Notes under the pieces: model-generated
What the model was told of the DNA's origin: nothing
Database searches by the model: none
What the model saw: only the letters and a program-made list of their open reading frames with translations
Translations under genes and position numbers: made by a program
Part shown: positions 7,111-9,069 of the stretch, one piece after another
How positions within the stretch are numbered: position 1 is the first letter of the stretch
Layout of the letters: the number at the start of each line of letters is the position of its first letter
DNA from: Escherichia phage PhiR44_1
Length of the DNA stretch: 32,366 nt
Sequence record: PV340563
Strand: one strand, 5' to 3'

Positions 7111-9069
7111 TTAGATTCCCTCAACTATTTTCATAATTCTAGCTGCATCATTCTTTTTGTCTTGATATTCAGCATAGGCTTGTTTTGATTGCACGATTAG
7201 GTCATTATATGTCAATATTTTTCCATTGATAGAAAGTAATTGCATATTTATAAAGTGTTGGTTCTCTTGTAAATATCCAGAGCCAACCAGGAATATTACT
7301 TCTATATGCGGTATATTTCCACCTGGGCAATTTTTAGGGTTATTGGAGAACCATTGTGTCGTTGCCTGTACATATTTATTACCTTGTGCGACTAGGTTCA
7401 TTATATCTGGGTGCACTTTAGGTCGTTTCATCTCAATAATTACATGCTTGCCAGAAACGGTTTTGAAAGCGATATCAATACGAGCACCGCTAGCAGCATC
7501 AGGGTTTATCTGTTTTAGTTCCTTGGTCAATGTTTGCTCCATAACAGATGTGCCTGTGACTCTTTCCCATGAAGGATCCAATAACCATAAATGATCATAT
7601 AAATACATTTGTACAGCTCTTTCAAGCTGATTTTCATCAGTTATTTTTTGGAATTTTTCAATTACTTTAAGGCGTTGCGAAGTAATTTCATAAAACATGC
7701 TTGCTTCAATGTCATTGACAGATGCAAATACATCTTTAAAATTTTCTGATTGAAGGTTGCTTATTTTATCTAATGCATCAAGGTTGTCTTGAATTCTAAG
7801 TCTTTCAAAGGCTAATACCGTATTTTTTAATACGGTTTTTCTTGCTGCTTTTTGTTCTTCCTCATTACCAGAAAAACGGAATGTGTTTACTCGTCCAATT
7901 AACTTTTCGGCACTTTCTCTCTCATGTTTTTTGAGAGAATTCAGCCATTCACTTACTATTGGAGTATTGCTTTTAACTTCATTTACTCCTTTTTCGCGTC
8001 TCCATTTATCCCAATCTTTATCGATTAGTTGTAGCGTTCTTTCCAGAAAACCTTTAAGTACAGGGTATCTTGGATCATTCTGTTGTAGTTTTTGACGAGA
8101 AGATGTTGCCATATCAGGCTTTTCGTTATCATCTAGAAAATCGGCGACTATTTCACCGACCAGATAATTGGTGAATACTTTAGCACTTCCAAATTCTAAT
8201 AATATGTCCTCCTCAAAAACACGTCCGTGAGAGATTACAGTAATGCTGTTGTTAGATATTTCAGGGTCTTTCTTTAACTGTGATGGCTTAACTACACTGC
8301 CAATGTACCCACTAACTTTTACATCTTTTCCTTCAAAGGTAATAGTATTTGGTAATATGTTTTTTTGTGTGATGTTTGTGCAGGATTTTATCCTTTCAGG
8401 GTCGGATTCGCCAAATTCCCAAATGAACTCGAGATCTGAAAGGAAATCTCTGTCTGCCGGTGTAATATCGGTCCCATTAATTTTAACTGTAAAGTTATGG
8501 TTGGGGCCAATAATGCTAAATCGACGAGCTATTCGCTTTCTGAGGTAAGTTTGAGTCCTATCAATGGCTTTTTTTAGTTCAAATAATTTAATTGTAGTGC
8601 CGTAAGCAAGATTTTCGGGTATTTCAAGGGAGTCAGCAATATAGTTTTTTGATTCTTTGATACTTTGCTGTAAATCTTTGACATCTACCTCAAAGGCCTG
8701 AGGCTGTTCCCCCTTTTTGTACGAATAAACTTGGATTTTATTGGCAAGTGAAAACATGGCAAGCTTACCAATACCTTTTCTGCCCATAACTTGACGTTTT
8801 AGATGATCGCTTTTGGCTCTTCCATGTTCCCTGCGAGCATAACCGACTTTTAGGAACTTATTAATAATGTCATCTTTAGACATGCCATGACCATCATCTT
8901 TAATGATGACCTCTCCTTTCTCAACATCAAGTGTAATTTCTACATTTTGAGCATCTGCATCCCATGCATTTGATATAATCTCAGTTAGTACCGCGGGAGT
9001 ATTGGAATAGAGACTCATCCCTAGGTGATTTAGCACATTCAAATCAATTTTAATTTCGAAATCTGACAT
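7111..9069 (-). CDS. GHKL-type ATPase fused to a putative PD-(D/E)xK nuclease domain (MORC-like restriction/defence protein candidate)
   Basis: 652 aa. N-terminal Bergerat-fold motifs: N-box EIISNAWDA, G1 DDGHGM, G2 GRKGIGKLAMFS. C-terminal ...RIDIAFKT...GKHVIIEMKRP fits the D...(D/E)xK nuclease signature. AT-rich; convergent with the MTase. Confidence 0.8.
   Translation of the reverse strand: MSDFEIKIDLNVLNHLGMSLYSNTPAVLTEIISNAWDADAQNVEITLDVEKGEVIIKDDGHGMSKDDIINKFLKVGYARREHGRAKSDHLKRQVMGRKGIGKLAMFSLANKIQVYSYKKGEQPQAFEVDVKDLQQSIKESKNYIADSLEIPENLAYGTTIKLFELKKAIDRTQTYLRKRIARRFSIIGPNHNFTVKINGTDITPADRDFLSDLEFIWEFGESDPERIKSCTNITQKNILPNTITFEGKDVKVSGYIGSVVKPSQLKKDPEISNNSITVISHGRVFEEDILLEFGSAKVFTNYLVGEIVADFLDDNEKPDMATSSRQKLQQNDPRYPVLKGFLERTLQLIDKDWDKWRREKGVNEVKSNTPIVSEWLNSLKKHERESAEKLIGRVNTFRFSGNEEEQKAARKTVLKNTVLAFERLRIQDNLDALDKISNLQSENFKDVFASVNDIEASMFYEITSQRLKVIEKFQKITDENQLERAVQMYLYDHLWLLDPSWERVTGTSVMEQTLTKELKQINPDAASGARIDIAFKTVSGKHVIIEMKRPKVHPDIMNLVAQGNKYVQATTQWFSNNPKNCPGGNIPHIEVIFLVGSGYLQENQHFINMQLLSINGKILTYNDLIVQSKQAYAEYQDKKNDAARIMKIVEGI

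Follow-up and report, generated by a model that had tools for sequence, protein, structure and literature searches.

Described systems combining a GHKL ATPase with a nuclease

The combination of a GHKL ATPase and a nuclease in one protein has been known since 2008. An N-terminal GHKL domain was noted that year in R.HgiDII of Herpetosiphon, a restriction enzyme classed among the orthodox Type II enzymes, in subtype P (PMC2441816). The paraMORC3 proteins were described as consisting of a GHKL domain, a second domain and a C-terminal domain of the restriction-endonuclease fold with the residues E-D-ExK; they are encoded in restriction–modification (R-M) operons with DNA cytosine methylases, and are laterally mobile and prevalent in proteobacteria (Iyer, Abhiman & Aravind 2008, PMC2292703). 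More recently, a GHKL N-terminal domain was described in type I-D Shedu (Adams et al. 2025, PMC12137116; Gu et al., bioRxiv 2023.08.10.552793). In VcSduA, which carries a GHKL domain and a DUF4263 domain, either of the mutations E27A (ATPase) and K557A (nuclease) abolishes defence (Adams et al. 2025, PMC12137116). On the methylation side, M.HgiDII is reported to be a GTCGAC m5C methyltransferase homologous to M.BbrUII (PMC5867850).

Gene structure and family assignment

The analysed window is a stretch of 32 366 nucleotides of Escherichia phage PhiR44_1 (sequence record PV340563). A sequence-only reading had reported a 652-aa protein at positions 7111–9069. The corresponding ORF of 652 codons is present, on the minus strand, a point missed by that reading: the ATG lies at 9069 and the stop codon at 7111–7113, and the plus strand of the same interval is riddled with stops. 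The product, here called R, is composed of a GHKL ATPase, a middle domain, a helical region and a PD-(D/E)xK nuclease, in this order.

R is a member of the catalogued BbrUII/HgiDII family of restriction enzymes. It scores 751.4 bits with the NCBIfam model NF050001 of that name (equivalog cut-off 550), with residues 4–651 aligned to positions 1–658 of the 659 in the profile. The RefSeq entry WP_001279022.1 bears the same name, and the PADLOC model REase_II (PDLC03419) matches at 2.3e-91. R thus matches over its full length the profile of the family named after R.HgiDII and R.BbrUII, the latter from Bifidobacterium breve UCC2003.

Four other identities were considered and rejected on score. The MutL model TIGR00585 gives 25.5 bits against a cut-off of 180, the HtpG/Hsp90 chaperone model PRK05218 gives 31.4 against 371, for a protein whose C-terminus is a nuclease, and MzaB of the MZA system (NF041932) gives 31.7 against 850, in the ATPase region alone. 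MORC membership was likewise discarded.

Methyltransferase partner and specificity

The gene next to R, also overlooked in the sequence-only reading, encodes a C5-cytosine DNA methyltransferase of 349 aa (M; 6021..7070, plus strand; Pfam DNA_methylase, 2.8e-55; PADLOC DrmMII/MTase_II, about 1e-90), with the motifs FCGAGG, PCQ, ENV, QSRSR and GNA. The mechanical ORF reaches a TTG at 5919; a GGAGG ribosome-binding site is visible ahead of the TTG at 6021, which is the likely start and the one given by the RefSeq CDS coordinates. The M and R genes are convergent and 40 bp apart. Between them lies an imperfect inverted repeat (7070..7117; arms 7070–7090 and 7097–7117, 71% complementary), together with a terminator-like site at 7100–7121; the repeat is a possible bidirectional terminator.

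Of 80 phylogenetically diverse genomes, about 58 have an orthologous methyltransferase, 44–57% identical to M, immediately beside the R homologue. In these relatives it mostly lies just 5' of R in the same orientation, whereas here the two genes face each other, on a P2-like E. coli prophage. The target-recognition region of M (aa approx. 220–290) is conserved to the same degree as the catalytic motifs, and a Vibrio homologue, 58% identical, is named 'methyltransferase HgiDII' by its source. R has a C5-cytosine methyltransferase partner comparable to M.HgiDII and M.BbrUII, as judged by the orthologues and by the name of the Vibrio protein.

BbrUII is an isoschizomer of SalI. On family membership alone, the recognition site of the pair is most likely GTCGAC. 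This hexamer occurs three times in the window against 6.8 expected, a depletion that is not significant. A methylation-dependent (Type IV) activity of R was rejected, because the conserved adjacent methyltransferase would make such an enzyme self-destructive.

Prophage hotspot

The region between the P2 replication gene A and the portal gene Q, beside cos, is the old/tin locus of P2 and holds variable anti-phage cargo (Rousset et al. 2022, PMC9122126). The R-M pair fills the same site of a P2-like E. coli prophage. Gene A forms the left boundary (3594..5909, plus strand; Pfam Phage_GPA, 7.2e-124), and the right boundary is the portal protein gpQ (9501..10535, minus strand; Pfam Phage_portal, 2.9e-14; 'phage portal protein' in RefSeq). 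The sequence GGCGAGGCGGGGAAAGCAC at 9313..9331 (plus strand), which we take to be the P2-type cos cohesive-end sequence, has this single exact match in the window and none in shuffled sequences. Its position identifies the R-M cassette as cos-proximal hotspot cargo; where P2 carries old/tin, this prophage has an HgiDII-type R-M pair. The GC content of the cassette is 35–39%, against about 55% in the flanks. The flanks are common to 2157 E. coli genomes, but the cassette is present in only 30 of the 5426 examined; a search of the phage-record collection did not find it. R is ordinary in that it belongs to a catalogued family, has a methyltransferase as neighbour and lies in a known P2-like defence hotspot.

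This location also bears on the view of R as a factor of DNA repair or chromosome maintenance, akin to MutL or MORC, with no part in defence. The ATPase has weak similarity to MutL and HtpG, and non-R-M roles were allowed for some stand-alone paraMORC3 proteins (Iyer et al., PMC2292703). Such a role is nevertheless extremely improbable for a low-GC hotspot gene that is present in only 30 of the 5426 E. coli genomes and paired with a methyltransferase, and whose MutL and HtpG scores (25–31 bits) fall far below the cut-offs of 180–371.

GHKL ATPase and middle region

The GHKL ATPase domain comprises aa 1–170 (8560..9069, minus strand, as for all the features of R that follow). The three motifs quoted in the sequence-only reading are all found in R: EIISNAWDA at aa 30–38 (motif I, ExxxN; E30–A38, nt 8956–8982), DDGHGM at aa 58–63 (motif II, DxGxG; D58–M63, nt 8881–8898) and GRKGIGKL at aa 96–103 (motif III, GxxGxG; G96–L103, nt 8761–8784). 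They are followed by motif IV (GT; G157–T158), so that the motifs of the superfamily occur in the expected order, within a Bergerat fold. The match is well above chance (Pfam HATPase_c_3, E = 2.3e-25, aa 26–149), and phmmer matches the domain to the N-domains of HtpG, TRAP1 and MutL.

The structure of R was predicted with AlphaFold2 as a monomer, as were all models here (full-length pLDDT 80). With Foldseek, the best matches of the full-length model are GRP94, TRAP1 and Hsp90, over about 400 columns (E 5e-13), the N-terminal ~330 residues of R aligning with their N and middle domains. Structure prediction, the check proposed with the original claim of an N-terminal GHKL fold, thus bears this claim out.

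The sequence-only reading had left a middle region of about 350 residues without an assignable motif. This does not apply to aa 171–333 (8071..8559), a beta-rich, transducer-like domain which, together with the ATPase, superposes on the Hsp90 N and middle domains. It still applies to aa 334–478 (7636..8070), an all-helical linker or clamp region modelled as helices 334–368, 370–378, 381–396, 403–426 and onward, for which the Pfam search returned no family match. The pLDDT falls to 56–74 across aa 440–510. Profile searches of PDB sequences with the middle domain, and with a 55-aa segment around its conserved R325 (loop ATSSRQ), matched nothing. A possible resemblance of the loop ATSSRQKLQQN to the Hsp90 catalytic loop found no support in these searches and is not relied on.

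Conservation was examined in 255 full-length R homologues, with identities down to about 33%. The ATPase residues E30, N34, D37, D58, G60, G62, G96, K98, G99, G101, K102, G157 and T158 are kept in 253–255 of them, and R325 in all 255. From the invariance of these catalytic residues we infer that R binds and hydrolyses ATP.

These data have to be weighed against the classification of the family. As an orthodox Type IIP enzyme, R would cleave GTCGAC with Mg2+ alone, and its GHKL domain would be vestigial or structural, a scaffold for dimerization or DNA binding. R.HgiDII is indeed placed in subtype P of the Type II classification, with a defined site (PMC2441816). The literature found nowhere mentions an ATP requirement of HgiDII; it yielded no biochemical study of an HgiDII-family ATPase, and no biochemical evidence that any enzyme of the family binds ATP or needs it for cleavage. 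Against this stand the near-invariance of the motif I–IV residues and of R325 down to about 33% identity, which would be unexpected in a decayed ATPase, and the essential role of the ATPase glutamate in VcSduA. We regard an orthodox Type IIP mechanism as rather unlikely.

C-terminal nuclease domain

The C-terminal string ARIDIAFKTVSGKHVIIEMKRP, proposed from the sequence as a PD-(D/E)xK signature, is located at aa 529–550 of R, within a domain extending over aa 479–652 (7114..7635). An AlphaFold2 model of aa 470–652 (183 residues, pLDDT 83.8) gives as top Foldseek match the E. coli SduA structure 8ps5_A (E 7.2e-6, probability 1.00), and also the B. cereus Shedu nuclease 8ti9 (E 1.4e-4). Below the Shedu proteins come EcoO109I, BstEII, NucS/EndoMS, Card1 and EcoT38I, all of them PD-(D/E)xK enzymes. 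In the full-length model the core consists of a helix (479–492), three strands (509–513, 530–537 and 542–547), a helix (556–576) and a further strand (589–595). This is the alpha-beta-beta-beta-alpha-beta order of the superfamily. D532 (nt 7474–7476) lies within the second strand and E546-x-K548 (nt 7426–7434) closes the third, the canonical positions. E483, in the first helix, E511, D532, E546, K548, Q562 and Y566 are kept in 249–254 of the 255 homologues. The proposed nuclease is corroborated by the predicted fold, which matches SduA/Shedu, Type II restriction enzymes and NucS, and by the near-invariance of D532...E546-x-K548.

R scores 17.3 bits (E 0.0056) with Pfam SduA_C (PF14082), under the gathering cut-off of 27. 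The model is matched below threshold in 25 of 34 family members, with a best E-value of 8.8e-7, and some of the closer relatives of R have a precomputed PF14082 match. The NucS profile matches R weakly, and a profile search of PDB sequences with the C-terminal domain matched nothing.

Comparison with related architectures

R shares with VcSduA and type I-D Shedu the succession of a GHKL ATPase, a middle or clamp region and a DUF4263 PD-(D/E)xK nuclease in one protein of about 650 aa. VcSduA differs in being a single-gene system for which no methyltransferase is mentioned, whereas R has a conserved methyltransferase partner and is of a restriction-enzyme class. The canonical SduA proteins (E. 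coli 8ps5, B. cereus 8ti8/8ti9) have other N-terminal sensor domains, no ATPase and only 14–22% identity to R. R thus has the nuclease fold nearest to the solved SduA structures, but it departs from the single-gene organization, without a modification partner, that characterizes Shedu.

These similarities raise the question of whether R is itself a stand-alone immune nuclease of the VcSduA type, sensing a sign of infection, for example DNA ends or structures, and not an unmethylated site, with M independent or modulatory. In addition to the SduA-like C-terminal domain, such a reading can appeal to VcSduA, which works alone and is non-toxic in E. coli, and to some family members with no methyltransferase within 3.5 kb (L023, L039 and L064). 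It is difficult to reconcile with the orthologous C5-methyltransferase, which adjoins R in some 58 of the 80 genomes, from many phyla, and with the score of R in a curated restriction-enzyme model, NF050001. VcSduA also seems to be a more distant relative, since E27 and K557 (VcSduA numbering) do not occur together in any of 268 R homologues, according to a weak check by regular expression. We consider a stand-alone function quite unlikely.

With paraMORC3, R shares the residues E483-D532-E546xK548 and a neighbouring DNA cytosine methylase, a match made on the described features. The second domain of paraMORC3 was described as S5-like, of the MutL/MORC type, whereas the N-terminal half of R matches best the N and middle domains of the Hsp90 family. 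Both the Hsp90 family (Hsp90, HtpG, GRP94, TRAP1) and MutL have, like R, a Bergerat ATP-binding fold followed by a middle domain. R lacks the chaperone C-terminal dimerization domain, and its nuclease differs in fold from the MutL endonuclease.

Proposed function

Together, these results make it probable that R serves as the restriction subunit in a BbrUII/HgiDII R-M cassette of two genes, carried as accessory cargo in the P2-like hotspot. M would mark the DNA of host and prophage, the reported HgiDII site being the most likely target, and R would cut unmarked incoming DNA with its Shedu-type nuclease (E483, D532, E546 and K548). By comparison with other GHKL machines, the Hsp90-like ATPase and the middle domain would most likely form an ATP-driven dimerization or clamp switch that licenses the nuclease. 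The need for ATP, the dimer or clamp mechanism and an anti-phage activity of the E. coli copy are predictions of this scheme.

Homologues of R that pass NF050001 also occur without a nearby methyltransferase, or in DISARM loci with an N6-adenine methyltransferase. The copies in class-1 DISARM loci are encoded between DrmMI and DrmA, and an ungapped alignment of one of them with a copy linked to a C5-methyltransferase shows 84% identity. These copies fit uneasily with R as a fixed reader of GTCGAC. Tentatively, the HgiDII-family protein could be, in place of an orthodox site-reading Type IIP enzyme, a portable, ATP-gated nuclease effector of Hsp90-like and Shedu-type construction, attachable to different methylation-based self-marking modules.

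For the window itself the consequences are small, the cassette being correctly annotated and the hotspot well documented. R provides a handy E. coli example of a family with an invariant Hsp90-like ATPase, and of one architecture that appears in three literatures under different names: HgiDII in REBASE, paraMORC3 and type I-D Shedu. If the family does provide a portable effector, target discrimination and ATP use in the 'Type II' HgiDII enzymes would need to be re-examined, and the family would supply a candidate nuclease for DISARM.

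Identity and sequence motifs of the nuclease

The 652-codon open reading frame at 7111–9069 is borne out; it is encoded by the minus strand, and stops abound on the other. Its product, R, matches the NCBIfam equivalog model NF050001 ('BbrUII/HgiDII family restriction enzyme') from end to end with 751.4 bits (cut-off 550 bits). PADLOC places it among the Type II restriction enzymes (2.3e-91), and the RefSeq entry WP_001279022.1, identical in sequence, carries the NCBIfam name. In PHROGs, R belongs at full length to phrog_6203, a family of unknown function in that database. Membership of the MutL, HtpG or MzaB families was rejected on family-model score.

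The three GHKL motifs quoted in the sequence-only reading are all present, in the order I–II–III (EIISNAWDA, residues 30–38; DDGHGM, 58–63; GRKGIGKL, 96–103), as is the C-terminal D...ExK string ARIDIAFKTVSGKHVIIEMKRP (residues 529–550). Pfam HATPase_c_3 matches residues 26–149 (E=2.3e-25). In an alignment of 255 full-length homologues, with identity down to approximately 33 per cent, the ATPase residues E30, N34, D37, D58, G60, G62, G96, K98, G99, G101, K102, G157 and T158 are kept in 253–255 sequences, the C-terminal residues E483, E511, D532, E546, K548, Q562 and Y566 in 249–254, and the mid-protein arginine R325 in all 255. Because of the domain score and these near-invariant residues, the motif matches go beyond chance.

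Predicted folds and known architectures

The AlphaFold2 model of the whole protein, made from a 42-sequence alignment, has a mean pLDDT of 80. Its top matches in the PDB are GRP94, TRAP1 and Hsp90 (about 400 columns, E near 5e-13), which identifies the N-terminal half as a GHKL ATPase followed by an Hsp90-type middle domain. The middle of the protein, earlier considered unassignable, is thus partly assigned: residues approximately 171–333 are predicted to form the Hsp90-type domain, and for residues 334–478 the model offers only an all-helical region of lower confidence.

Residues 470–652 were modelled separately (pLDDT 84). The best matches are 8ps5_A, E. coli SduA bound to DNA (E 7.2e-6, probability 1.00), and 8ti9, the nuclease domain of B. 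cereus Shedu; EcoO109I, BstEII, NucS/EndoMS, Card1 and EcoT38I come next, all of them PD-(D/E)xK nucleases. In the model, D532 lies within strand 530–537, E546 and K548 end strand 542–547, and the conserved E483 is in the preceding helix, a predicted layout corresponding to the classical E-D-ExK arrangement. Pfam SduA_C stays below threshold on R (E 0.0056, 17.3 versus 27 bits), as in 25 of 34 family members, and a faint NucS match covers residues 530–571. Structure prediction therefore supports both folds proposed from the sequence, the N-terminal GHKL and the C-terminal PD-(D/E)xK.

This architecture is not new. The GHKL N-terminus of R.HgiDII was noted by Orlowski and Bujnicki in 2008, who left the C-terminal domain unassigned (PMC2441816). 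Also in 2008, paraMORC3 was described by Iyer, Abhiman and Aravind; it is composed of GHKL, a second domain and a C-terminal restriction-fold nuclease with E-D-ExK, encoded in restriction–modification operons with cytosine methylases (PMC2292703). GHKL-fused Shedu nucleases constitute type I-D of Gu et al. (bioRxiv 2023.08.10.552793), and one of them, VcSduA, was validated genetically by Adams et al. in 2025 (PMC12137116). R is likened here to VcSduA by published descriptions, and to R.HgiDII and R.BbrUII by such descriptions and by the family model.

The methyltransferase and the recognition sequence

The adjacent C5-cytosine DNA methyltransferase gene, M (Pfam DNA_methylase, 2.8e-55), is convergent with the R gene, 40 bases away. 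Mechanical prediction starts it at TTG 5919 (383 aa) and RefSeq at 6021 (349 aa). TTG 6021 is the likely start, as a ribosome-binding site, GGAGG, precedes it by 6 nt and the conserved motif I (FCGAGG) begins eight residues past it. A perfect 11 bp inverted repeat (ATGCTTGATTT / AAATCAAGCAT, 9-nt spacer, 5924–5954) directly follows gene A, some 70 bp ahead of this start, and overlaps a TTGACA hexamer; it could serve gene A as a terminator or M expression as an operator. A gene for a controller (C) protein was not seen.

With each species represented by a single genome, a scan yielded 575 confirmed relatives. The best 80 of these 575 loci, which were examined, span Proteobacteria, Acidobacteria, Chloroflexi, Bacteroidota, Actinobacteria, Firmicutes and Thaumarchaeota MAGs. 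A C5-methyltransferase 44–57% identical to M directly adjoins the nuclease in about 58 of the 80, and a more distant C5-methyltransferase is present in seven; nine have an N6-adenine methyltransferase in its place, two are cut by contig ends, and four have no methyltransferase within 3.5 kb. Of the adjoining methyltransferases, 54 match M over nearly the full length; 52 of these share the strand of the nuclease gene, and 39 immediately precede it. Loci L023, L039 and L064 (R at approximately 6001–7960), two in one Cenarchaeum MAG and one in Curtobacterium, lack a recognizable methyltransferase within 3.5 kb; the two nucleases scored, those of L039 and L064, pass NF050001 with 758 and 738 bits.

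The presumed target-recognition region of the orthologous M proteins (residues approximately 220–290) is as conserved as their catalytic motifs, suggesting that they have one specificity in common. According to PMC5867850, M.HgiDII is an m5C enzyme specific for GTCGAC and a homologue of M.BbrUII. A Vibrio homologue 58% identical to M also bears the label 'HgiDII' methyltransferase, given by its source, so that GTCGAC is the likely site of the pair. It occurs three times in the window against 6.8 expected, a non-significant difference. PMC5829577 and PMC5867850 disagree on the type of M.BbrUII (N6-adenine versus 5mC); we favour 5mC, given the alignment with M.HgiDII in PMC5867850 and the C5 motifs there.

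Prophage setting

The pair has a GC content of 35–39%, against approximately 55% in its flanks, and is bounded by gene A of P2 replication (Phage_GPA, 7e-124) on one side and by the portal gene on the other. Between R and the portal gene, positions 9313–9331 are an exact copy of GGCGAGGCGGGGAAAGCAC, which we take to be cos, the cohesive end of phage P2 (19 nt); the cassette therefore holds the old/tin position. Elsewhere the window consists of a P2-like prophage, inserted beside cpxP in E. coli. The gpA–cos–gpQ interval is the P2 defence hotspot described in PMC9122126; P2 itself carries old and tin there. Among 5426 complete E. coli genomes the flanks were matched in 2157 but the cassette in only 30, consistent with hotspot cargo. 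R is an already known restriction enzyme, its annotation is correct, and the hotspot that holds it is known as well.

A 197-aa open reading frame (24686–25279, plus strand) occupies a low-GC patch (approximately 41–45%) between the tail-fibre assembly gene (23937–24464) and the sheath gene (25609–26799), where P2 has Z/fun. Its product belongs at full length to phrog_3829 (function unknown in PHROGs) and had no match in Pfam or PADLOC; a second hotspot, with this gene as its cargo, is possible.

Proposed mechanism

Resident DNA would be marked by M, and unmarked DNA cut by the nuclease domain of R. All residues for ATP binding and catalysis are strictly conserved, as is R325 of the predicted middle domain, which argues for an active ATPase. 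ATP binding closes the dimer gate of GHKL proteins such as Hsp90, MutL and GyrB, and by analogy would shut an N-terminal gate in R. Iyer et al. suggested that proteins of this kind loop the DNA between the site of recognition and the site of cleavage (PMC2292703). In the VcSduA model of Adams et al., two entwined subunits form a dimer with a clamp-like cavity; in the same study either mutation, E27A (ATPase) or K557A (nuclease), abolished defence (PMC12137116). The alternative is an orthodox Type IIP enzyme requiring Mg2+ only, and Type IIP is the published class of R.HgiDII (PMC2441816). On the strength of the looping proposal and of the VcSduA model and mutants, we lean towards R being an ATP-gated clamp that licenses its nuclease.

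Relatives within DISARM loci

In nine of the 80 best loci (L017, L019, L020, L021, L022, L035, L050, L051 and L054; R at approximately 6001–7950 in most), the nuclease gene lies between those of a DrmMI-type N6-adenine methyltransferase (PADLOC, 1868 bits) and DrmA (1611 bits), a gene order that appears to be the class-1 DISARM organization. Two of the nine (L019 and L022) also carry a PifA-like KAP NTPase. In a tenth locus, L060, DrmA–DrmB–DrmC precede the nuclease (5837–7876), which is followed by a GmrSD gene. The nine nucleases are 65–99% identical to one another, and the two scored (L050 and L019) pass NF050001 with 826 and 860 bits. The DISARM-linked nuclease of L035 aligns with that of L074, from a plain C5-methyltransferase pair, over 647 residues at 84% identity and with no gap. 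A search of the literature collection used here for a link between DISARM and a GHKL nuclease found no paper. These relatives raise the possibility that the HgiDII-family nuclease is a portable effector and not a dedicated reader of GTCGAC; they leave the reading of R in the window unchanged.

For the family, the additions are small: structural models place the HgiDII-type C-terminal domain in the Shedu branch of PD-(D/E)xK nucleases, and three names, HgiDII, paraMORC3 and type I-D Shedu, are explicitly equated for one architecture.
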